NCBI GenBank assembly: GCA_964529935.1
Contig: CAZGXS010000001.1
Location: forward strand, 1 to 33,027
Direction: 5' to 3'
Origin: an uncultured bacterium
GTDB lineage: Bacteria; NPL-UPA2; JAADIA01
DNA length: 33,027 nt
Part shown: positions 3,845-33,016 of the stretch, in pieces
How the letters are laid out: every line of letters begins with the position of its first letter
How positions within the stretch are numbered: position 1 is the first letter of the stretch
Notes under the pieces: model-generated
Told to the model about the DNA's origin: nothing
Database searches by the model: none
What the model saw: only the letters and a program-made list of their open reading frames with translations
Program-made: the position numbers and the translations under genes

Positions 3845-3850
3845 CTGCTC

Positions 3851-3932
3851 AGGTTATCAGGTTCACAGTTCAAAGGTTCACGGTTAGTTGGGTCATGTTC
3901 ATTTTTTAACCGTGAACCGTGAACCGCGGAAC
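3851..3932. repeat. GGTTCAC/GTGAACC hairpin element (same word family as 1761-1950)
   Basis: GGTTCACGGTTA (about 3875-3886) is perfectly complementary to TAACCGTGAACC (about 3907-3918), with a 20-nt loop. It shares the 5' boundary AGGTTATC.GGTTCAC with the array at about 1755. Confidence 0.9.
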
Positions 3933-6299: not shown

Positions 6300-6344
6300 T
6301 TAGTGAATAGTGAATGGTGAATAGTGAATGGTGAATAGTGAATG
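6300..6344. repeat. (GTGAATR)x6, equivalent to (GTGAATAGTGAATG)x3
   Basis: Six perfect heptamers alternating A/G at about 6303-6344. The last unit contains the ddl GTG start codon. Confidence 0.95.
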
Positions 6345-7354
6345 AAGTAATCCGGGATGCGAAAATAGCCGTCTTGATGGGAGGACCATCCAGTGAGAGG
6401 GATATTTCCCTGAAGTCGGGGAAGGCGGTGGAGGAAGCTCTCCAAAAAGTCGGTTTAAAGGTTGTGCCTATTGTTGTGGATGAAGATATGGAGGAAAGAT
6501 TAAAGGAAGAGAGGGTAGGGGTAGCTTTTATTGCCCTTCACGGAAGGTTCGGTGAAGATGGCACTGTCCAGGAGATACTGGAACGATTAAGTATTGCCTA
6601 TACAGGCTCAGGAGTAGAAGCCAGTAGAATAGCTTTTGATAAGGCGGTTTCCAAGAAAATTTTCCTCAAGGAAGATATAGCTACTCCCGCTTTTTATGTT
6701 TTGGAAAAGGGGGATAAGAAAGAGAAGATGGTCTCTCAGTTTCCTTTCCATCCAGTTATAAGAAATCCGCTCGTTGTTAAACCGGCCCGGGAGGGTTCTA
6801 CCCTAGGTGTATCCATTATTAGAGGGGAAGAAGAATATTTAACTGCCCTTGACAGAGCTTTTCAGTATGATAGGAAAATATTGGTAGAAGAGTATCTAGA
6901 TGGTCGGGAAGTCACCGTGGGCATCTTAAATGGTTCTCCTCTGCCGGTTATCGAGATCCTTCCCCAGAGAGAATTTTTCGATTTCCAGGCCAAGTATACG
7001 GAGGGTTTAACTAATTTTAAGGTTCCTGCTCCTCTACCCCCGGATATTTACGAGGAGACTCAGGCTCTGGCTCTTCAGGCTCACCGGGCGCTGGATTGTC
7101 AAGGTATGTCCCGGGTAGATATAAAAGTGAATAGCTCCGGAAAACCCTATGTCCTGGAGGTGAATACTATCCCCGGAATGACTTCCTTAAGCCTCTTGCC
7201 GAGGGCAGCCCGGGCAGCGGGGATAAGTTTCCCGCAGTTATGTTGTAAATTAATTGAAATTGCCTTAAGAGATAAGGCACAGAGGCACAAAGGCACAGAG
7301 GCACAAAGGAAGAAAAGGCACAAAGGGAAAAAGGCACAAAGGGGAAAACAATAG
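6338..7354 (+). CDS. ddl: D-alanine--D-alanine ligase with repeat-encoded basic C-terminal tail
   Basis: ATP-grasp enzyme: KIAVLMGGPSSERDISLKSG, HGRFGEDGTVQ, EVNTIPGMT. GTG 6338 is the only start upstream of the conserved N-terminus (in-frame TGA at 6332-6334). The last ~26 aa are translated from AGGCACAR repeats. Confidence 0.93.
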   Translation: MNEVIRDAKIAVLMGGPSSERDISLKSGKAVEEALQKVGLKVVPIVVDEDMEERLKEERVGVAFIALHGRFGEDGTVQEILERLSIAYTGSGVEASRIAFDKAVSKKIFLKEDIATPAFYVLEKGDKKEKMVSQFPFHPVIRNPLVVKPAREGSTLGVSIIRGEEEYLTALDRAFQYDRKILVEEYLDGREVTVGILNGSPLPVIEILPQREFFDFQAKYTEGLTNFKVPAPLPPDIYEETQALALQAHRALDCQGMSRVDIKVNSSGKPYVLEVNTIPGMTSLSLLPRAARAAGISFPQLCCKLIEIALRDKAQRHKGTEAQRKKRHKGKKAQRGKQ

Positions 7355-7418
7355 CCAATACTTACAGTTTTTTAAGTTTTTTAACTCTGTGCCTCTGTGC
7401 CTAATTTGCATGTGCCTT
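7271..7418. repeat. AGGCACAR hairpin element, full copy 1
   Basis: (AGGCACAR)x4 plus two spaced AAGGCACAAAGG units at about 7275-7342. Loop core AATACTTACAGTTTTTTAAGTTTTTTAACT. Inverted arm CTCTGTGCCTCTGTGCCT (about 7385-7402) plus TGTGCCTT. Confidence 0.9.
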
Positions 7419-8270: not shown

Positions 8271-8378
8271 CACAGAGTTTCTCAGGATTCAAGGATTCAA
8301 GGATTTGAGGGTTTTTTTAAAGATTTTCCCTTGACCCCTTGAATCCTGGACCCCTTGAACCCTTATTCTTTCTCTGTG
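8271..8378. repeat. AGGATTCA / CCTTGAA hairpin element
   Basis: CAGGATTCAAGG (about 8283-8294) is perfectly complementary to CCTTGAATCCTG (about 8337-8348). There is a tandem 8-mer on the left arm, a T7 run in the loop, and an outer CACAGAG/CTCTGTG pair. Confidence 0.9.
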
Positions 8379-9677: not shown

Positions 9678-9733
9678 CACGCCTCACGCCTCACGCTACA
9701 GACTACAGGCTTTCAAGCGTGAAGCGTGAAGCC
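9678..9733. repeat. CACGCCT / AGCGTGA hairpin element, copy 1
   Basis: (CACGCCT)x2 plus CACGCTA, loop ACAGACTACAGGCTTTCA, then (AGCGTGA)x2 AGCC. The arms pair over about 17 bp with two C-A mismatches. Confidence 0.9.
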
Positions 9734-9770: not shown

Positions 9771-10952
9771 ATGTTAGAATTTAAGGATGAGTTTGATTGT
9801 GAAGTCGATATAAAGATTATCGGAGTAGGAGGCGGAGGAAGCAACGCTGTTGACCATATGGCTGAGGCAGCTCTTTGCGGTATAGACTTTATTGCCGTCA
9901 ATACCGATGCCCAGGCTTTGAGGATGTCTTCTTCGCCTCAGAAGATTCAAATCGGGACAGAATTAACAAAAGGACTAGGTTCGGGAGCCAATCCGGAGAT
10001 TGGGCGAAAGGCGGCCTTCGAAGATCGAGAGAGGATTGCTGAGGCCTTGAAGGGAGCGGATATTGTTTTTATCATCGCTGGATTGGGAGGAGGAACAGGG
10101 ACTGGGGCCAGTCCGGTAATTGCCGAGGTAGCCAAAGAGGCAGGAGCTTTGACGATGGCTGTGGTTACTAAGCCCTTCCTTTTTGAAGGAAGAAAGAGAA
10201 GCCTCCAAGCAGAATCTGGACTGAAAGAGTTGGAGGGTAAGGTGGATACCTTGCTCTGTATTTCTAACCAGAAACTCTTTGCCTCAGCGGAAGAGGAGGC
10301 CTCTTTCCTCGATGCCTTCAAGATGGCTGACGATGTCCTTCTTCAGGGGATAAAGGCTATCTCTGATCTGATTACTGTCCCGGGGCTTATAAACTTAGAT
10401 CTGGCCGATGTGAGAACAATTATTTCTGAGGCGGGGGGAGCTCTCCTGGGAGTTGGTTTCGGCCGGGGAGTGGATCGGGCCAAGAGGGCGGCGGAGGGAG
10501 CGATCACCTGCCCCTTGTTAGAAAAAGCGGATATAAGTGGAGCCCGGGGAGTATTAGTTAATATTACGGGAGGTCCGGACTTAAGCCTGCGGGAAGTGGA
10601 GGAGGCTACTATCACTATCTATGAGACGGTAGATGTAAATGCCCATATTATTTTCGGGGCGGTCTTCGATAAATCTTTAAAAGGAGAAATGAAGGTGACC
10701 GTCCTGGCTACGGGACTGAAGAATGAAAGGGAAGAGGAACAACTCAATCTGGCGCTGGACAGTTTTTCTCAATTCCCGGTCGCCGAGGTGACGACCTCGG
10801 ACAAAAGAGGCTTTTTTGGGAGAAAAAGGAAAAAGAAGGTCGCTATTCCAGAAGGATTTATCAAAGAGACAGCCTTGAATAGTAACCTGGATATACCTGC
10901 TTTTCTCAGACGGGGGAAGGGAGGGGGCGCAATGATGATAGATGGACATTAG
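9771..10952 (+). CDS. ftsZ: Cell division GTPase FtsZ
   Basis: GVGGGGSNAV, tubulin signature GGGTGTGASPVIA, C-terminal peptide DIPAFLRR. AAGGAGG SD upstream. Confidence 0.97.
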   Translation: MLEFKDEFDCEVDIKIIGVGGGGSNAVDHMAEAALCGIDFIAVNTDAQALRMSSSPQKIQIGTELTKGLGSGANPEIGRKAAFEDRERIAEALKGADIVFIIAGLGGGTGTGASPVIAEVAKEAGALTMAVVTKPFLFEGRKRSLQAESGLKELEGKVDTLLCISNQKLFASAEEEASFLDAFKMADDVLLQGIKAISDLITVPGLINLDLADVRTIISEAGGALLGVGFGRGVDRAKRAAEGAITCPLLEKADISGARGVLVNITGGPDLSLREVEEATITIYETVDVNAHIIFGAVFDKSLKGEMKVTVLATGLKNEREEEQLNLALDSFSQFPVAEVTTSDKRGFFGRKRKKKVAIPEGFIKETALNSNLDIPAFLRRGKGGGAMMIDGH

Positions 10953-12513
10953 GAAGCAATTATTAGCGGGGGAGATAGGGACTTGTTACAAGAAAGAAGC
11001 GGAGGTTTCGGTGCTCCTTGTCTATCCTAATAGCTACTTTGTGGGGATGTCCAGTTTAGGATTTCAGACGATCTATTATCAGTTGAACCAGCGTTCGGAT
11101 ACCTACTGCCAGCGGCTGTTCCTTGACTCTTCTCCTCCCCTATCGCTGGAGAAAGGATGGCCGGTAAGCAATTTTGATATCATCGCTTTCTCTGTATCCT
11201 TTGAGCTGGATTATCTGAATATCTTGAAAATATTAGATGTAGTTGCCATTCCTTTAAAAGGAGGAGAAAGGAGCGATGGCCATCCTTTGATTATAGCCGG
11301 AGGGATAGCCGTTTCGGCCAATCCGGAGCCTCTCGTGGAATTCATTGATCTTTTTGTCATCGGGGAAGGGGAAGAGGTTATTCATGAGGTTATTGATGCA
11401 TATAAGACAGTCGCTAATCAACGTCCCCTCCTCAGCAGAAAAGAAATTCTTAAAAAGCTAGCTGAAATTGAGGGTATTTATATCCCCGGATTTTATCAAG
11501 TCTCTTATAATGAAGATGGAACAGTAAAAGCCGTTGAGGCCAGAGACGTTCCCGGAAAGATTAAGAGAAGATGGATAAGGGATATTGACAACTATCCAAC
11601 TGTTTCCCGCATCTTGACCAAAAATACGGAGTTTGGGGATATGTATTTGCTGGAGATCAGTCGGGGATGTCCGGAAAATTGTTATTTTTGTTTGGCCAGC
11701 CATATTTATCGCCCCTGGCGAGTGAGAAGTTTAGAAAAGATATTAGAACAAGCGGAAGAAGGACGGAAACACCGAGAGAGGATAGGACTTATTTCGAATC
11801 TTGCCTCCCGCCATCCCCGGGTGGAAGAGATTTGTTCGCAGGTGTTAAAAATGAAAGGGAGGATCTCCCTATCCTCTCTCCGACCAGGAACTTTGAGCAA
11901 GACTTTGATTCGGTCCCTGGAGGAGAGCGGACAACGGACGATTACCTTGGCTCCGGAAACGGGGTCGGAGACCTTAAGGAAAACTCTTAATAAAGACATC
12001 AGCAACGAAGATATTCTGAGGTCAGTGGAATTGATAGCTAACTTCGCCGTTCCCAACCTTAAGCTCTATTTCATGATTGGTTTCCCCGAGGAAAAAGACG
12101 GAGACATGGCAGCTATTATCGATTTAGTGACTAAGGTAAAAAAGATATTGATGAGGGCAAAAAAGTCAGGTAGAATTACTGTTAGCGTCAATCCTTTCGT
12201 TCCCAAAGCTTCTACTCCTTTCCAGAGGGTAAGGATGGAGGAGGGAAAGACGCTTTCCCGGCGCCTCAAAATCCTGAAAAAGGGACTCCGGGGTTTAGGG
12301 AATGTCAAATTGATTCACGAAAGTATTAAGTGGAGCCTTTGGCAGGGGCTCCTTTCCCGGGGCGACCGACGGTTAGGAAATGTTCTCCTCTCAACCTATA
12401 GATGGGAAGGAGATTGGAAGAAGGCTTTAAGGGAAGAAGGGCTGGATAAGTTTTTCTATCTGCATCGGGAAAGAGGAAAAGAGGAAATATTGCCCTGGGA
12501 TCACCTAATTTAA
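10942..12513 (+). CDS. B12-binding-domain radical SAM protein of unknown function (resembles the TIGR03960-type uncharacterised family)
   Basis: 523 aa. CX3CX2C motif in SRGCPENCYFC. The N-terminal LLVYPNSYFVGMSSLGFQTIYYQLN is typical of this family. ATG 10942 overlaps the last 11 nt of ftsZ. Confidence 0.8.
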   Translation: MDIRKQLLAGEIGTCYKKEAEVSVLLVYPNSYFVGMSSLGFQTIYYQLNQRSDTYCQRLFLDSSPPLSLEKGWPVSNFDIIAFSVSFELDYLNILKILDVVAIPLKGGERSDGHPLIIAGGIAVSANPEPLVEFIDLFVIGEGEEVIHEVIDAYKTVANQRPLLSRKEILKKLAEIEGIYIPGFYQVSYNEDGTVKAVEARDVPGKIKRRWIRDIDNYPTVSRILTKNTEFGDMYLLEISRGCPENCYFCLASHIYRPWRVRSLEKILEQAEEGRKHRERIGLISNLASRHPRVEEICSQVLKMKGRISLSSLRPGTLSKTLIRSLEESGQRTITLAPETGSETLRKTLNKDISNEDILRSVELIANFAVPNLKLYFMIGFPEEKDGDMAAIIDLVTKVKKILMRAKKSGRITVSVNPFVPKASTPFQRVRMEEGKTLSRRLKILKKGLRGLGNVKLIHESIKWSLWQGLLSRGDRRLGNVLLSTYRWEGDWKKALREEGLDKFFYLHRERGKEEILPWDHLI

Positions 12514-12514
12514 G

Positions 12515-12632
12515 GATAAGGCACAAAGTGACAGAGGCACAAAGGCACAAAGGAAAAGATAAAAGCTAATACTTGCAGTTTTTTTAGTTTTTTTTAACTT
12601 TGTGCCTATGTGCCTTAGTGCCTCTGTGCCTG
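12515..12632. repeat. AGGCACAR hairpin element, full copy 2
   Basis: Starts GATAAGGCACA as in copy 1. The loop core AATACTTGCAGTTTTTTTAGTTTTTTTTAACT is about 90% identical to copy 1. Inverted arm CTTTGTGCCTATGTGCCTTAGTGCCTCTGTGCCT. Confidence 0.9.
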
Positions 12633-12690: not shown

Positions 12691-13506
12691 ATGGTTACCA
12701 CATTGGAAAACAAAACAAACAACGGAAGAATGGCCTGGAGGGAAGAGCAGGGAATAAGACATCTTATCTTTCCCCGTTTTGGGGAAGCTGGTCTTTCTCT
12801 CCATGCTTTTACCTCTCGTCCCTTTGATCTTGGATTTGGAAGGAGGGAAAGAGAGGATGTTCTCAAAGACAGGAGAAAAGTATGCCGGGTTTTGGGGATA
12901 AACTTTCTTCTGCTGACGGCGGGAGAACAGGTTCATGGGGCCAGGATAGTCAAAGCTGGTGAAGAGGAGAGGGGAAGGGGAACACTCAGCTCGGAAGGAG
13001 CTATTCGCCAGGCAGATGGTTTTATTAGTAATGTCCCCGGCGTTCCCTTAACTATTCTTACTGCTGACTGTATTCCTATCTTTGTCCTGGACCCGGTCAG
13101 AAAAGCTATCGGTTTGGTTCACGCGGGATGGAGAGGAACATTATGTCGAGTGACGGAGAGCGTGGTGATGATGATGGGGGAAGAATATGGAAGCCGGCCG
13201 GAGGAACTGATAGTAGCTCTGGGCCCATCCATCGGACCCTGCTGTTATGAGGTGGGGGAGGAGGTAGTTAGTGCTTTTCAGGAGCAGTTTACGGATTGGC
13301 CATCGTTTATCTCTTCTAAGCTTGCCGGAGAAAGGTGGATTTTAGACCTCTGGGAGGCTACTCGTCTTCAATTGATAAGAGTTAAGGTTAAAGATGATAA
13401 TATCATCAACATCCGCATGTGCACCAGCTGCCACAATGATGTCTTCTTCTCCCGGCGACGCGATGGTTCTCCTGCCGGCCGCATGATGTCCCTCATGATG
13501 CTTTAA
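12691..13506 (+). CDS. pgeF: Peptidoglycan editing factor PgeF / YfiH (DUF152, laccase-domain) protein
   Basis: 271 aa. HAGWRG motif, a conserved Cys/His set (TADCIP, CTSCH), GAAGGAGGG SD, and the typical location downstream of ftsZ. Confidence 0.88.
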   Translation: MVTTLENKTNNGRMAWREEQGIRHLIFPRFGEAGLSLHAFTSRPFDLGFGRREREDVLKDRRKVCRVLGINFLLLTAGEQVHGARIVKAGEEERGRGTLSSEGAIRQADGFISNVPGVPLTILTADCIPIFVLDPVRKAIGLVHAGWRGTLCRVTESVVMMMGEEYGSRPEELIVALGPSIGPCCYEVGEEVVSAFQEQFTDWPSFISSKLAGERWILDLWEATRLQLIRVKVKDDNIINIRMCTSCHNDVFFSRRRDGSPAGRMMSLMML

Positions 13507-13565
13507 AAGGGCCCAATCTTTCTACTAATAAAGAGCACAGGAATTTTTGTGTTGGAAAGAAGGAA

Positions 13566-13594
13566 TTGACTTGAGAAAGAAGAAATGATAGAAT
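13566..13594 (+). promoter_or_regulatory. Candidate sigma70-type promoter for lepB: TTGACT-17-TAGAAT
   Basis: Hexamers and 17-nt spacing were read directly, about 50 nt upstream of the lepB ATG. This spacer has no word repeats. Confidence 0.4.
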
Positions 13595-13645
13595 TGCAGA
13601 GTAATTTTTTAAGCGCATTCTATCTAAAGTGAAAGGTGCCCATAG

Positions 13646-14344
13646 ATGAAGAAGCAGGAAACAGCGAGCAAGAAATTGGAGAAGACAGGGGAAGGGGAGA
13701 GGAAATCTCTATTTCGGATATGGATAGTAGAAACATTGCTTCCCGCCGGGATTTGTGCTTTATTTATCATTACTTTCGTTGTTCGAATTTACCACATTCC
13801 CTCCGGCTCCATGAGACCGACATTAGAAGTTGGAGACCGTATCCTGGTGGCCAAATTTATCTATGGAATTCGGGTTCCTTTTACCGGGAGATGGCTCTTC
13901 CAGCGCCAACCTCCGCGAAGGGGAGATAATATCGTCTTCCTTTTCGATGAGGGCCAGGAAGAAGAAAGAGGGTTCGTTGAGAAAATTATCGGTTCCCTTT
14001 TCCGGGGAGAAGCCTGGAGTGAGAGAAAGAATTTTATCAAGAGGATAGTGGCCACCCCGGGGGAGCGAATGGAGATTAACGATGGGAATCTGTATATCAA
14101 TGGGCAACTGATAGATGAATCCCCCGCTTTTCCCCGGGAACGATTTTATTATAACTTACATGGAGAGAATCTATTTTACACTCAAAGAGAGATAGCTATT
14201 CCGGAAAGTAATTTCTTTGTCCTTGGTGATAATAGCGCCCGTAGTCGAGATAGCCGCCACTGGGGATTTGTCCCCTTAGAAAGGGTCAGGGGGAAGGCTA
14301 TCCTTATTATCTGGCCACCAGGAAGGATGGGAATTATTCGTTGA
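13646..14344 (+). CDS. lepB: Signal peptidase I
   Basis: N-terminal TM segment, catalytic Ser box GSMRPTL, Lys box KRIVATPGE, GDNSARSRDSRHWGFVP. Confidence 0.95.
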   Translation: MKKQETASKKLEKTGEGERKSLFRIWIVETLLPAGICALFIITFVVRIYHIPSGSMRPTLEVGDRILVAKFIYGIRVPFTGRWLFQRQPPRRGDNIVFLFDEGQEEERGFVEKIIGSLFRGEAWSERKNFIKRIVATPGERMEINDGNLYINGQLIDESPAFPRERFYYNLHGENLFYTQREIAIPESNFFVLGDNSARSRDSRHWGFVPLERVRGKAILIIWPPGRMGIIR

Positions 14345-14347
14345 CTC

Positions 14348-14376
14348 TTGACAAGAAGTCAGATTAGTAGTATCTT
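14348..14376 (+). promoter_or_regulatory. Candidate sigma70-type promoter for grpE-dnaK-dnaJ: TTGACA-17-TATCTT
   Basis: Perfect -35 hexamer, 17-nt spacer and a weak -10, located 30 nt upstream of the grpE ATG. Confidence 0.3.
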
Positions 14377-14405
14377 TTTGAGGGTCACCGAGGAAAGGGC
14401 AACCT

Positions 14406-15035
14406 ATGTTGGGAAGGAAGGAAAAAATACAATCAAAGCTGGAAGGAGAAGCGGATAAGAAAAAAGTAAAGCCGAAATCGAAAAGAGGAGGAAGGAAGCT
14501 ATCCCTTTCCCAGGAAAAGTGGCAAGAGATAAGTGAGAAAGCGAAATTAGCTGAGGAGCGATTTGACCGTCTCTTGAGACTTCAGGCGGAATTTGAGAAC
14601 TATCGTAAGAGGGTTAACAGGGAGAGAGGCGAGTTCATTCAGTATGCTTTAGAAGATTTCATCTGTGACCTCTTGCCGGTAGTTGATAATTTCGAACGGG
14701 CTATTGCCTCAGCCCACCAGCACGACAATTCTCCGGCTCTGCTTCAGGGAGTAGAGATGATTTATAAGCAGGTGCAGGATGTTTTAGCCAAGAGGGGGCT
14801 GGAGAAGATAGAAGCTCTGGGTAAGAAGTTTGATCCCCGGGAACACGAAGCCGCGATGCAGGTAGAAAGTAAAGAGCATGCGGATAATACGGTTATTGAA
14901 GAGAGCTTAGCTGGGTATAAACTCAAAGATAAGGTGATTCGACCAGCCATGGTTAAAGTTTCTACAAAGAAGGCACAAAGGCACAAAGTAGCAAAGGCAC
15001 AGGGTGAAGAAGTTAAGGACAAGAAAGCCCAATAA
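14406..15035 (+). CDS. grpE: Nucleotide exchange factor GrpE with repeat-encoded C-terminal tail
   Basis: RLQAEFENYRKR, FDPREHEA, and the conserved end RPAMVKVS. This is followed by about 24 extra residues (KKAQRHKVAKAQ...) encoded by AGGCACAA units. Confidence 0.93.
   Translation: MLGRKEKIQSKLEGEADKKKVKPKSKRGGRKLSLSQEKWQEISEKAKLAEERFDRLLRLQAEFENYRKRVNRERGEFIQYALEDFICDLLPVVDNFERAIASAHQHDNSPALLQGVEMIYKQVQDVLAKRGLEKIEALGKKFDPREHEAAMQVESKEHADNTVIEESLAGYKLKDKVIRPAMVKVSTKKAQRHKVAKAQGEEVKDKKAQ
14971..15002. repeat. (AGGCACAA)-type tandem octamers x4 inside the grpE 3' end (left arm only)
   Basis: AGGCACAA AGGCACAA AGTAGCAA AGGCACAG, read directly. No inverted TGTGCCT arm follows. Confidence 0.85.
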
Positions 15036-17102: not shown

Positions 17103-17215
17103 GTAACTACTTCAGGAGTCAGAAGTCAGGAGTCAGAATCCAGAATAGAAGAAGCACAAGCTTTCCTGTCTGTGTTAATTTCTTTCATTCTGACTCCTGA
17201 CTTCTAAGTAGTTAC
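17103..17215. repeat. Long hairpin element built from (CAGRAGT) heptamers
   Basis: The left arm GTAACTACTT-CAGGAGT-CAGAAGTCAGGAGTCAGAAT pairs with the right arm ATTCTGACTCCTGACTTCTAAGTAGTTAC. That gives about 29 bp with one heptamer bulged out and a loop of about 47 nt. Confidence 0.9.
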
Positions 17216-18420: not shown

Positions 18421-18458
18421 TTGTAATTTAAAATTTACAATCTTCAATTTACAATTCA
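18421..18458. repeat. AT-rich tandem or palindromic AATTTACAA units
   Basis: TTGTAATTTAAAATTTACAA is an imperfect palindrome, followed by AATTTACAA repeated with a 14-nt period. Confidence 0.7.
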
Positions 18459-18487
18459 AGTTTGCGACCGTAGGGAGCTAACTTGTT

Positions 18488-18562
18488 GTCCCCATCGTCT
18501 AGCCTGGTCTAGGACCCCAGATTTTCGATCTGGTAGCAGGGGTTCAAATCCCCTTGGGGACA
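18488..18562 (+). tRNA. tRNA-Glu (anticodon UUC), CCA not encoded
   Basis: Cloverleaf folded by hand. 7-bp acceptor stem GTCCCCA/TGGGGAC; anticodon stem CCAGA/TCTGG with loop TT-TTC-GA; T arm AGGGG-TTCAAAT-CCCCT; discriminator A. Close to the E. coli tRNA-Glu sequence as recalled from memory. Confidence 0.93.
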
Positions 18563-18703
18563 TCACCTCAAAGAGGACTATCCCAGATTTACGGAGCAAT
18601 AACTCGTAGAATTTGGAATTGACAAGCTTTCTAAGTCATCAACGCGAGATTCAAGGCTATTAGTTTCATTCTCCGTATCCATAATATTCCCCAAGCAATA
18701 TTT

Positions 18704-26997: not shown

Positions 26998-27060
26998 GCT
27001 TCACGCTATACGCTGCAGGTTGCAGACTGCAGGCTTTTAAGCGTGAGGCGTGAGGCGTGA
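26997..27060. repeat. CACGCCT / AGCGTGA hairpin element, copy 2
   Basis: GGCTTCACGCTATACGCT, loop GCAGGTTGCAGACTGCAGGCTTTTA, then AGCGTGAGGCGTGAGGCGTGA. The loop core CAGACTRCAGGCTTTYAAGCGTGA is shared with the copy at 9678, in the same orientation. Confidence 0.9.
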
Positions 27061-29069: not shown

Positions 29070-29086
29070 GGGAATCATATTCTTTA

Positions 29087-30526
29087 ATGAAAACAATCTC
29101 TAAACAATCTAATCCTCTGGTGGCTATCGTTGGTCGTCCCAATGTGGGCAAATCAACCCTCTTCAATCGCCTTATCGGGGAGCGGAAATCGATAGTGGAA
29201 GCGGAACCGGGAGTCACCCGGGACAGGGTCTATGCTGAGGGGGAATGGGTGGGGAGGCAATTTTCCCTGGTGGATACCGGCGGCTTGATTCCCGATACTT
29301 CCGGGGAAATCATGAGCTTAGTCAGAAAACAGGTAAAGGTAGCTATCGAGGAAGCGGATCTTCTTATCTTCTTAGTGAATGTCCAAGAGAGGCTAACTGC
29401 TATTGATGAAGATATAGCAAAATGGTTTCGCCGGATAGATAAGCCTGTTATCCTGGTTGCTAATAAGGCTGATAATCCTCGCTTAGAAGAAGACGCGCTC
29501 TCTTTTTATCGATTGGGCTTATCTCATCCTATTCCTATTTCAGCTATGCATGGGCTTAATATTAACGAGCTCCTCGATAAGATGCTCGAGTCTTTACCTT
29601 TAAAGGGGCAAAAAGGGGAGCAGAAAGAAGGAATTAAAGTTGCCGTTGTCGGACGGCCCAATGTAGGGAAATCATCCTTCATCAATACTCTTCTTCGGGA
29701 GGAAAGGCTCATCGTTAGCGATAAGCCGGGAACAACCCGGGATGCCATAGACACTGTCTTTTATATAGGCGAGGAGAAGTTCATTTTCGTGGATACGGCA
29801 GGAATGCGGCCGAAGAGCCGGGTGAAGAAAAAGGTGGAAAGTTATAGTATAATCCGGTCCCGAAGAAGCATAGAACGCGCTGATATCGTTCTCCTTCTCA
29901 CCGATGCTCAGGAAGGGGTAACTTCCCAGGATAGCAAAATAGCCAGCTACATTTGTGAGGAGGGAAGAGGATGCATTATTGTGGTCAATAAGTGGGATCT
30001 AATAGTGGAAAGTTTAAAGTTGAAAGGGAAAAATAAAAGAAAGGGCCAAGCACCTCGGGTTGAAAGTTTAAGGTTGAAAGTTGAAAGTCAAAAAAATAAT
30101 CAACTACCCTGGGTGGAGATGAAAAAAGTGAGGGAAGAATATAGCCAAGCATTACGGGATAAGCTGAGGTTTCTGAACTTTGCTCCTTCTACCTTCATTT
30201 CAGCTTTAACTGGGGAGGGCGTATTTAAAATTATCGATTTGATAAGGATGGTAGCTCATCAGCAGACAATTCGTCTATCTTCCGGTATTTTGGGAAAAGT
30301 GTTTGAAGAAGCTAAGGACCATTATAAACCGCCTGGCGGTCAAGCTAAACCAGTTACTCTCCATCGACTCAGTCAAGTGGGGATAAAGCCGCCTACCTTT
30401 GTCCTTTTTGCCAATCATCCTCAGTTTATTGCCGACCCTTATTTGCGTTATCTCAGCAATAGATTACGTCAGGCCTTTGGATTTGAAGGGACTCCCCTCA
30501 AAATTATTCCCCGGAAGGGAAGATGA
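29087..30526 (+). CDS. der: Ribosome-biogenesis GTPase Der (EngA) with in-frame repeat insertion
   Basis: Two G domains (GRPNVGKST..DTGG..NKAD..ISAM and GRPNVGKSS..DTAG..NKWD..ISAL) plus a C-terminal KH-like domain. Confidence 0.95.
   Translation: MKTISKQSNPLVAIVGRPNVGKSTLFNRLIGERKSIVEAEPGVTRDRVYAEGEWVGRQFSLVDTGGLIPDTSGEIMSLVRKQVKVAIEEADLLIFLVNVQERLTAIDEDIAKWFRRIDKPVILVANKADNPRLEEDALSFYRLGLSHPIPISAMHGLNINELLDKMLESLPLKGQKGEQKEGIKVAVVGRPNVGKSSFINTLLREERLIVSDKPGTTRDAIDTVFYIGEEKFIFVDTAGMRPKSRVKKKVESYSIIRSRRSIERADIVLLLTDAQEGVTSQDSKIASYICEEGRGCIIVVNKWDLIVESLKLKGKNKRKGQAPRVESLRLKVESQKNNQLPWVEMKKVREEYSQALRDKLRFLNFAPSTFISALTGEGVFKIIDLIRMVAHQQTIRLSSGILGKVFEEAKDHYKPPGGQAKPVTLHRLSQVGIKPPTFVLFANHPQFIADPYLRYLSNRLRQAFGFEGTPLKIIPRKGR
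30003..30116 (+). repeat. GTTGAAA-word direct repeats inside der (in-frame)
   Basis: GTGGAAAGTTTAAAGTTGAAAGG (about 30006-30028) and GTTGAAAGTTTAAGGTTGAAAGTTGAAAGTC (about 30059-30089) flank an A-rich core. They translate as VESLKLKG...VESLRLKVES. Confidence 0.85.
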
Positions 30527-30730
30527 AAGAGGAGCAAGACATTTTCTCCCTCACAGGTGGTTGCTCGCTGCTACGCTTCGGTCGAAAAGGGCAGCAATTA
30601 AACTCCCCGCCACACTTCTTGGCGGGTCAGACAAAATTTCTGCTTTAACCCTTTTCTTCCTCAGCTACGCGGACGCTGCGCTACCAATGTTCGCTTGAAA
30701 ATACCTTGCTCTATGGTAGGAATGATAGAG

Positions 30731-32938: not shown

Positions 32939-33016
32939 GTTATTAGCTATTAGTTATAACCTTATACCCTTACGGGCACAAGCGGGCACAAGCGAGTTAC
33001 GAGTTACTGTTTTTTT
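32939..33016. repeat. Serial tandem duplications: TTATWRSY units, (CGGGCACAAG)x2, (CGAGTTA)x2, T7
   Basis: Read directly. GGCACAAG resembles the AGGCACAR family. Any inverted arm would lie beyond the window end. Confidence 0.8.

Follow-up and report, generated by a model that had tools for sequence, protein, structure and literature searches.

An in-frame insertion in the second G domain of Der from an NPL-UPA2 bacterium, probably expanded in place from a coding heptanucleotide tandem-repeat tract

The stretch of DNA analysed in this work, hereafter the window, comprises positions 1 to 33,027 (33 kb) of contig CAZGXS010000001.1 (assembly GCA_964529935.1) from an uncultured bacterium of the NPL-UPA2 lineage. 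It encodes the GTPase Der (EngA), whose second G domain carries 36 extra residues directly past its G4 motif, and the DNA that encodes these residues is a tandem direct repeat of 54 nucleotides (nt) with a 7-nt periodicity. We consider it likely that the insert is an expansion loop of Der, specific to the lineage and variable in length, that was made in place from a coding heptanucleotide tandem-repeat tract. Compared with the capture of an intergenic repeat element, which had been proposed in an earlier interpretation of this DNA (the sequence-only reading), slippage or duplication of such a tract in situ is the simpler and the most likely explanation.

The open reading frame (ORF) at 29087-30526 is, judged from its motifs and its structural model, a canonical Der/EngA. 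Both of its consecutive G domains possess the G1-G5 set (GRPNVGKS twice, DTGG and DTAG, NKAD and NKWD, SAM and SAL). Two MMR_HSR1 stretches and a C-terminal KH_dom-like domain (PF14714, residues 396-476, E = 1.7e-22) were identified by Pfam. The best solved relative in the PDB is B. subtilis EngA/YphC (HMMER alignment, E = 1e-118). The Foldseek search with the model of window Der ranked Der structures first and matched 9bsl_W, 2hjg, and 1mky. The features of the gene are as follows.

29087-30526, plus strand: der (engA) coding sequence, 479 amino acids (aa), with G domain 1, G domain 2, and the KH-like domain (Pfam, PDB match, Foldseek).
29462-29473, plus strand: G4 motif NKAD of G domain 1, residues 126-129, with ISAM 24 residues on and without insert (translation, alignment).
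29987-29998, plus strand: G4 motif NKWD of G domain 2, residues 301-304, invariant across all homologues (alignment).
30005-30058, plus strand: repeat copy 1 (direct repeat family D1), 54 nt, encoding VESLKLKGKNKRKGQAPR with a net charge of +6, specific to the window and missing from all relatives (relatives' span 18 aa shorter).
30005-30026, plus strand: heptamer array 1, GTGGAAA GTTTAAA GTTGAAA G (Tandem Repeats Finder (TRF) period 7, 3.3 copies; codon-resampling P = 0.008).
30059-30112, plus strand: repeat copy 2, 54 nt, encoding VESLRLKVESQKNNQLPW, collinear and equal in length with the 18-aa insert of related Ders, such as VEGLKSEVESKINDRALR of P0014 (direct repeat, alignments).
30059-30088, plus strand: heptamer array 2, GTTGAAA GTTTAAG GTTGAAA GTTGAAA GT (TRF period 7, 4.3 copies, score 46; codon-resampling P = 5e-5).
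30113-30163, plus strand: native segment VEMKKVREEYSQALRDK, which corresponds to VEKD... and helix alpha4 of ordinary Der, with the model helix at residues 342-359 (alignments, AlphaFold2 secondary structure).
30200-30208, plus strand: G5 motif SAL of G domain 2, residues 372-374 (translation, alignment).

The extra residues are V307-W342 (36 aa, nt 30005-30112). In the alignment with B. subtilis Der (2hjg), query residues 307-348 are opposite chain residues 299-306, which gives about 36 surplus residues. This alignment and the secondary structure of the model locate the insert between G4 (NKxD, strand beta5) and helix alpha4. The alignment bears out the in-frame insertion between G4 and G5 of G domain 2 that the sequence-only reading had described. 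The proposed position of 30003-30116 (about 38 aa) identified the right site and was offset by 2-4 nt. The reported contrast between 24 residues in G domain 1 and 66 residues in G domain 2 is real, but the two intervals had been counted in different ways, and the start-to-start counts are 24 and 70.

The span from the N of NKWD to the S of G5 SAL is 71 aa in window Der. The same span is 35 aa in 126 of the 127 Firmicute der genes and in 97 of the 120 best database homologues. The Firmicute der loci (gut Firmicutes) serve as the no-insert baseline; they were gathered by a full-Der scan of genome and metagenome contigs and include no member of the clade of inserted Ders described below. Among 91 parsable representatives of diverse Der clusters, six have spans of 49-65 aa with unrelated sequences, none as long as the 71 aa of window Der. 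It had been anticipated that orthologs from unrelated phyla would not share an insertion of the same length and similar sequence; similar lengths (49-65 aa) do occur in unrelated lineages, and no similar sequence from an unrelated lineage was found among the 91 representatives and the 120 best homologues. As far as these alignments show, the G4-alpha4 loop of G domain 2 is a recurrent insertion site of Der. The Der-like protein P0011 (615 aa), which had been suspected of a larger insert at this site, actually has three consecutive G domains before the KH-like domain and no insert.

The insert region consists of two direct copies of the 54-nt unit that are 70% identical, and the Der reading frame is unbroken across them. 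The sequence-only reading had also proposed that the segment originates from repeat DNA and that its copies are direct rather than inverted and preserve the frame, and these proposals agree with the findings in this work. In the 32-nt non-heptamer tails, 18 of the 32 positions are still identical between the two copies (P = 0.00075 against shuffles), so the entire 54-nt unit was duplicated and not the heptamers alone. The 22-nt repeat word has a single location in the window, and 0 matches are expected in shuffles. None of the 26 coding sequences of the window contains a stronger period-7 tract than the Der insert.

The repeat unit starts on native codons, namely the Val-Glu pair that follows NKWD-[LA]-[IV] in ordinary Ders (...[IV]EKD). 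The word GT(G/T)GA(A/G) is repeated at the starts of copy 1, copy 2, and the native segment, which is the product expected of tandem duplication as opposed to the target-site duplication of a miniature inverted-repeat transposable element (MITE). No terminal inverted repeats of the MITE-like kind were found around the insert. The native VEMKK... segment was considered as a third 54-nt copy and rejected, with only 23/54 and 19/54 positions matching copies 1 and 2. There is no evidence in the sequence match that the insert is a duplication of alpha4.

The periodicity was examined by codon resampling, where synonymous codons were redrawn for the same peptide from the codon usage of the window and the period-7 autocorrelation was compared. 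The observed autocorrelation is above the expectation from peptide and codon usage in arm 2 (P = 5e-5) and arm 1 (P = 0.008). The resampled sequences rarely reach the observed period-7 signal, hence the repeat is a property of the DNA and not a by-product of an amphipathic heptad peptide. The opposite explanation, in which protein-level selection favoured an amphipathic or coiled-coil heptad (VESLKLK) and the segment had no DNA-repeat origin, is consistent with the hydrophobic residues at positions a and d of the heptad and with the helix modelled at residues 303-319. However, codon resampling rejects it in the window (P = 5e-5) and in four relatives (P <= 1e-3), and a heptad peptide requires a 21-nt and not a 7-nt periodicity, so we regard this explanation as very improbable. 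A perfect (GTTGAAA)3 array in the Der frame would place TGA at the fourth codon, and the actual codon in every period is TTA or CAA.

The closest database relative of window Der is 74-76% identical. The 13 closest Ders (57-76% identical), which form the clade considered here, are metagenome proteins, two of which are labelled 'Nitrospirae bacterium' and 'candidate division NPL-UPA2', respectively. All 13 clade members carry 14-26 extra residues at the codon position of the Der insert, and these residues are absent from more distant Firmicute-type Ders. The spans from NKWD to FL are as follows.

P0021, Firmicute relative: 27 aa (counted by hand in the alignment).
P0017, sister lineage: 30 aa.
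P0008: 41 aa.
P0004, P0007, and P0014: 45 aa.
P0003 and P0009: 51 aa.
P0002 and P0006: 52 aa.
Window Der: 63 aa.

The window sequence VESLRLKVESQKNNQLPW-VEMKKVREEY aligns collinearly and at equal length with VEGLKSEVESKINDRALR-AEIKRVGEEY of P0014. Since copy 2 and the segment that follows it match P0014 in length, the insert common to the clade is 18 aa and copy 1 is precisely what the window adds, and the window der is accordingly 54 nt longer than the der genes of P0004, P0007, and P0014. The absorption of an intergenic element that the sequence-only reading had proposed is, taken as one recent event, not supported by this history, where half of the insert (18 aa) is clade-wide and one 54-nt copy is specific to the window.

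Heptamer words are also present in the DNA of the relatives at this site, such as GTTGAAA GGTTAAA GTTTAAA GTTGAAA GTTTAAA in L081, and four of the six relatives tested exhibit a period-7 signal beyond codon expectation (P = 5e-5 to 1e-3). The relatives P0006 and P0007 originate from one sample, and their der genes (in L081 and L082) exhibit 93.4% DNA identity over 1371 nt. The sole indel between them is a 21-nt block of three heptamers inside the der tract, which is the kind of presence/absence polymorphism that had been suggested for relatives. The NPL-UPA2 relative P0013 (L169, 58% identical) has another heptamer array, AAAAATC x4.9, at the same G4-alpha4 site of der (positions 5396-5429 of L169). 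This array encodes IKNQISKIKNQK, and L169 shares the trp-pgsA-der synteny. The presence of a different heptamer at the same site suggests a hotspot rather than a single element.

The sequence of the insert is not conserved even inside the clade, and the extra length ranges from 14 to 36 residues. The C-terminal half of the clade insert (..LRxEIxR..) is moderately conserved. Homologous inserts were identified at the same codon position in eleven independent assemblies (JGI, Logan, ENA, and NCBI). These assemblies bear on whether the extra segment was made by an assembly or chimera artefact, which is conceivable where the assembly is of the metagenome type and repeats are prone to mis-assembly. 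The intact frame, the conservation of both flanks, and the eleven assemblies all count against an artefact, and copies that are just 70% identical are not expected to collapse or expand in assembly; we consider an artefact extremely improbable.

Two observations concern the neighbourhood of the gene. The gap between trpA and der is 17 nt in the window (29070-29086), and pgsA (CDP-alcohol phosphatidyltransferase) lies between the two genes in L087, L169, L172, and L085. The der-plsY spacer (30527-30721) is 195 nt in the window, and the two genes are separated by 8 nt in L087 and overlap in L088. On folding, the spacer gives a long paired structure (z = -3.6), and it has neither heptamer arrays nor an Rfam match. 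An inserted element of another kind or a structured RNA may account for it.

The window is rich in short tandem arrays. TRF reported 33 rows of period 7-8 in the window compared with 1.7 (maximum 3) in dinucleotide shuffles, and nearly all of them are intergenic or at gene ends. Many of these arrays are inverted pairs that flank a T- or A-rich spacer, and seven elements fold as strong hairpins (z = -4.3 to -8.3). Most intergenic regions of the window hold such array-armed elements, where the unit varies by locus and some loci share unit and spacer. The hairpin-like elements, whose arms are arrays of a 7-8-nt unit and its reverse complement, are as follows.

1764-1946: hairpin-like element.
3850-3926: hairpin-like element.
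7274-7402: hairpin-like element, family AAGGCACA.
8284-8364: hairpin-like element.
9678-9732: hairpin-like element, family AAGCGTGA.
12518-12631: hairpin-like element, family AAGGCACA.
17112-17205: hairpin-like element.
27000-27060: hairpin-like element, family AAGCGTGA.
32954-33007: partial element.

The array-armed elements have no T-run past the stem and no Rfam match, and the lack of a T-run means that they do not resemble intrinsic terminators. The only match in the Rfam scan of the window was a tRNA. The TGAA/TTCA core is the commonest 4-mer in the array units outside Der (9/23 compared with about 7% of random 7-8-mers), and this enrichment may reflect a common origin or a binding motif. 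The NPL-UPA2 genome paper makes no mention of repeats.

The arrays also extend into coding sequences. The sister lineage L171 (GCA_002581605.1) lacks the Der insert, yet it is equally rich in heptamer arrays. Heptamer or octamer arrays extend the N- and C-termini of its Der (10006-10024 and 11349-11409), and a perfect (GACTGCC)x5.9 array lies in frame within its MoeA gene (13170-14435, minus strand; array 14052-14092) and encodes SSRQSAVGSRQSAV. Relatives also carry arrays that adjoin der.

Other arrays were observed elsewhere in the window and in the database. The C-terminal tails of Ddl (6338-7354; array 7274-7354; ...KAQRHKGTEAQRKKRHKGKKAQRGKQ) and GrpE (14406-15035; array 14970-15035; ...KKAQRHKVAKAQ...) are encoded by AAGGCACA octamer arrays, so that Ddl (D-Ala-D-Ala ligase) and GrpE, which are unrelated proteins, gain similar basic tails of the KAQRHK type. 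An AATTTAC x4.6 array (18425-18456) is located 30 nt upstream of the only tRNA gene of the window, tRNA-Glu (UUC) at 18487-18564. The Der-like protein P0160 has QKTEVRC-QKTEDRG-QKTEDRA right after NKWDLVG, and a SPOR-like domain then replaces the rest of Der. The P0160 segment, judged from the protein, fits a (CAGAAGA)n heptamer array, and P0160 probably results from chimeric assembly or from rearrangement at an array.

This background gives some weight to a different origin, where a ready-made dispersed intergenic repeat element was captured into der and was kept since the frame happened to survive. Some intergenic elements form dispersed families with common units and spacers, which suggests that they spread, and there are arrays that run into coding sequence at the ends of genes. 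The Der unit shares with the arrays of the window its 7-nt period and the TGAA core that is enriched in them, and the differing heptamers at one der site across relatives could reflect repeated insertions. The likeness to the intergenic elements claimed by the sequence-only reading therefore holds for the 7-nt unit and the TGAA core. It does not extend to reverse-complement arms and a stable hairpin, which the Der insert lacks. Its arms are direct and not inverted, and the segment folds no more strongly than expected (z = 0.09 over 30003-30116 and 0.31 over 29990-30210, compared with -4.3 to -8.3 for the intergenic elements). The best inverted partner of the Der arms (73% over 22 nt) is 93 nt downstream, outside the insert, and was judged to be chance. 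Further copies of the GTTGAAA unit outside Der are absent from the 33-kb window, and a perfect GTTGAAA array would have brought an in-frame TGA. The growth was stepwise, with 18 aa and then 18 aa more, accompanied by a 7-aa polymorphism among relatives. The tract also opens on native V-E codons, which fits local duplication better than the entry of foreign DNA. We therefore regard capture as unlikely.

The favoured explanation, expansion in place, would proceed as follows. The lineage forms and tolerates 7-8-nt arrays genome-wide, and one GTTGAAA-consensus tract occupies the native Val-Glu codons past NKWD of G domain 2 and the positions after them. Der is an essential protein and its repeat unit of 7 nt is not divisible by 3, which means that a change would survive only if it kept the frame. 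The surviving changes would be three heptamers (21 nt, 7 aa) or bigger in-frame duplications such as the 54-nt unit, and the TGA positions of a perfect array have given way to TTA or CAA. The outcome is the 18-aa clade-level insert and then one more 54-nt tandem duplication in the window genome. The tendency to mutate would be the same as the one that fills intergenic DNA, without the insertion of one such element.

Several points weigh against expansion by slippage. Slippage is a mechanism that we infer, and the gain of three units from a two-unit tract is no simple slip. The difference between P0006 and P0007 may be a loss instead. The arrays are now imperfect, with two or fewer identical consecutive units, hence ongoing slippage is not demonstrated by them. 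The peptides for the resampling tests of the relatives were picked by eye. The common TGAA core could mean a shared element or a binding factor rather than undirected slippage, and intergenic elements of the GTTGAAA type could exist in the genome beyond the 33-kb contig. The conservation of ..LRxEIxR.. in the clade insert hints at some constraint and so possibly at a function.

The structure of window Der was modelled with AlphaFold2 on 82 homologues (mean predicted local distance difference test (pLDDT) score of 79.7). The Ras-like fold of G domain 2 is retained in the model. Residues 303-319 are helical (pLDDT about 72-90), residues 321-337 have pLDDT below 50, and the native alpha4 begins at residue 342. 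The sequence and the model together describe a Lys/Glu-rich insert peptide that is partly helical and otherwise disordered. The insertion may be tolerated since the beta5/G4-alpha4 loop is at the surface of the G fold, where other Der lineages would have acquired unrelated insertions independently, and the loop is predicted to be exposed in the ribosome-bound state as well. The Der loop is probably a neutral or near-neutral expansion, and the basic copy 1 (+6) would add at most non-specific contacts to ribosomal RNA (rRNA).

The main functional alternative to a near-neutral loop is a weakly selected basic arm. In its stronger form, the Lys/Arg-rich extension is an adaptive module, that is, a selected rRNA-binding or regulatory arm that resembles the Rho insert in position and whose repeat look is secondary. 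The net charge of copy 1, the moderate conservation of the C-terminal half of the clade insert, and the recurrence of insertions at this site of Der in other lineages are consistent with such an arm, as are the contacts of G domain 2 with rRNA helices H68, H75, and H88 in the E. coli 50S-EngA complex (PMC4245960). Against it, charge and sequence vary among relatives, whose inserts are neutral or acidic compared with +6 for copy 1. P0014 and P0007, for instance, have 18-aa inserts whose net charge is about 0 to -2. The number of extra residues is variable (14 to 36), the model confidence over residues 321-337 is low, and the 7-nt periodicity resides in the DNA and is not needed by the peptide. 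An adaptive module is thus improbable in our view.

The Rho insert of Rho-family small GTPases is conserved and functional; it is helical, has a length of about 13 residues, and separates strand beta5/G4 from helix alpha4. The Der insert is located past NKxD and before alpha4, which we take to be the topological position of the Rho insert. Both are partly or wholly helical and, as predicted for Der, at the surface. Unlike the Rho insert, the Der insert belongs to another GTPase family, shows no sequence homology to it, and is variable in length and sequence. The C-terminal extension of E. coli EngA, which is required for 50S binding, is another species-specific basic addition to Der (PMC4245960). 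That extension is terminal and not repeat-derived, whereas the insert in window Der is internal to G domain 2 and repeat-derived.

A broader proposal would join the genomic and the functional observations. The lineage (the clade, the NPL-UPA2 relatives, and the L171 sister group) would have an active, possibly factor-directed seeding of TGAA-preferring 7-8-nt arrays, by which different units (GTTGAAA and AAAAATC) would have landed more than once at one codon position of der and also in other essential genes, such as MoeA and the termini of Ddl and GrpE, and the Der loop could be a selected, rRNA-contacting basic arm in 50S maturation. We give this proposal only a small chance.

The tract agrees with known repeat systems in several respects. 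As expected of a coding heptanucleotide simple sequence repeat, its head-to-tail units have a periodicity beyond what the peptide needs, and the in-frame copy differences are confined to it. Cyanobacterial short tandemly repeated repetitive (STRR) heptamers are related bacterial 7-nt repeats. Heptanucleotide long simple sequence repeats (LSSRs) have been described as the most abundant long simple repeats in many bacteria, with slippage proposed as their cause (Mrazek et al. 2007, according to the summary given in PMC4679880). The TAACTGA repeats of Beggiatoaceae, Cyanobacteria, and Bacteroidetes are mostly intergenic, and those in ORFs yield 7-aa periodic peptides (LSVISYQ), mostly at protein ends and in one case inside an RpoC-like ORF (MacGregor 2015, PMC4679880). 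The arrays of the window resemble these systems in having head-to-tail 7-nt units that are abundant intergenically in particular lineages and are sometimes read through in ORFs. However, the unit in the window changes by locus without a single dominant heptamer, and many of the intergenic arrays are inverted pairs that form hairpins. The Der array also differs in its location deep in the catalytic G domain of an essential universal protein, in its persistence with turnover in a clade that has diverged to about 57-60% Der identity, and in its amplification as a 54-nt unit.

Intrinsically disordered protein regions are also created by the tandem repeats of Borg extrachromosomal elements (PMC9879509). 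The Borg repeats and the Der tract are similar in that local DNA tandem repeats preserve the frame and add low-complexity or disordered segments (PMC9879509). In contrast to the Borg repeats, the Der tract resides in a bacterial chromosome and in an essential gene. The unit of the Der tract is 7 nt, so that only every third copy number is viable. A repeat-built insertion is already known as a kind of event, and it is unusual for a core G domain.

The Der insert alone reveals no new mechanism or function. It provides a clean and datable case of a non-triplet (7-nt) repeat tract in the catalytic domain of an essential, universally conserved protein, where the tract changes its length only by 21 nt or 54 nt, which keeps the frame. 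Knowledge of the G4-alpha4 insertion site is useful for aligning, annotating, and engineering or tagging Der. For a lineage about which little is known, the findings tie intergenic DNA rich in repeats to innovation, or at the least to bloat, in the proteins of core genes. If the directed seeding of arrays proves true, the core machinery of these bacteria would routinely gain new protein segments from repeat arrays.

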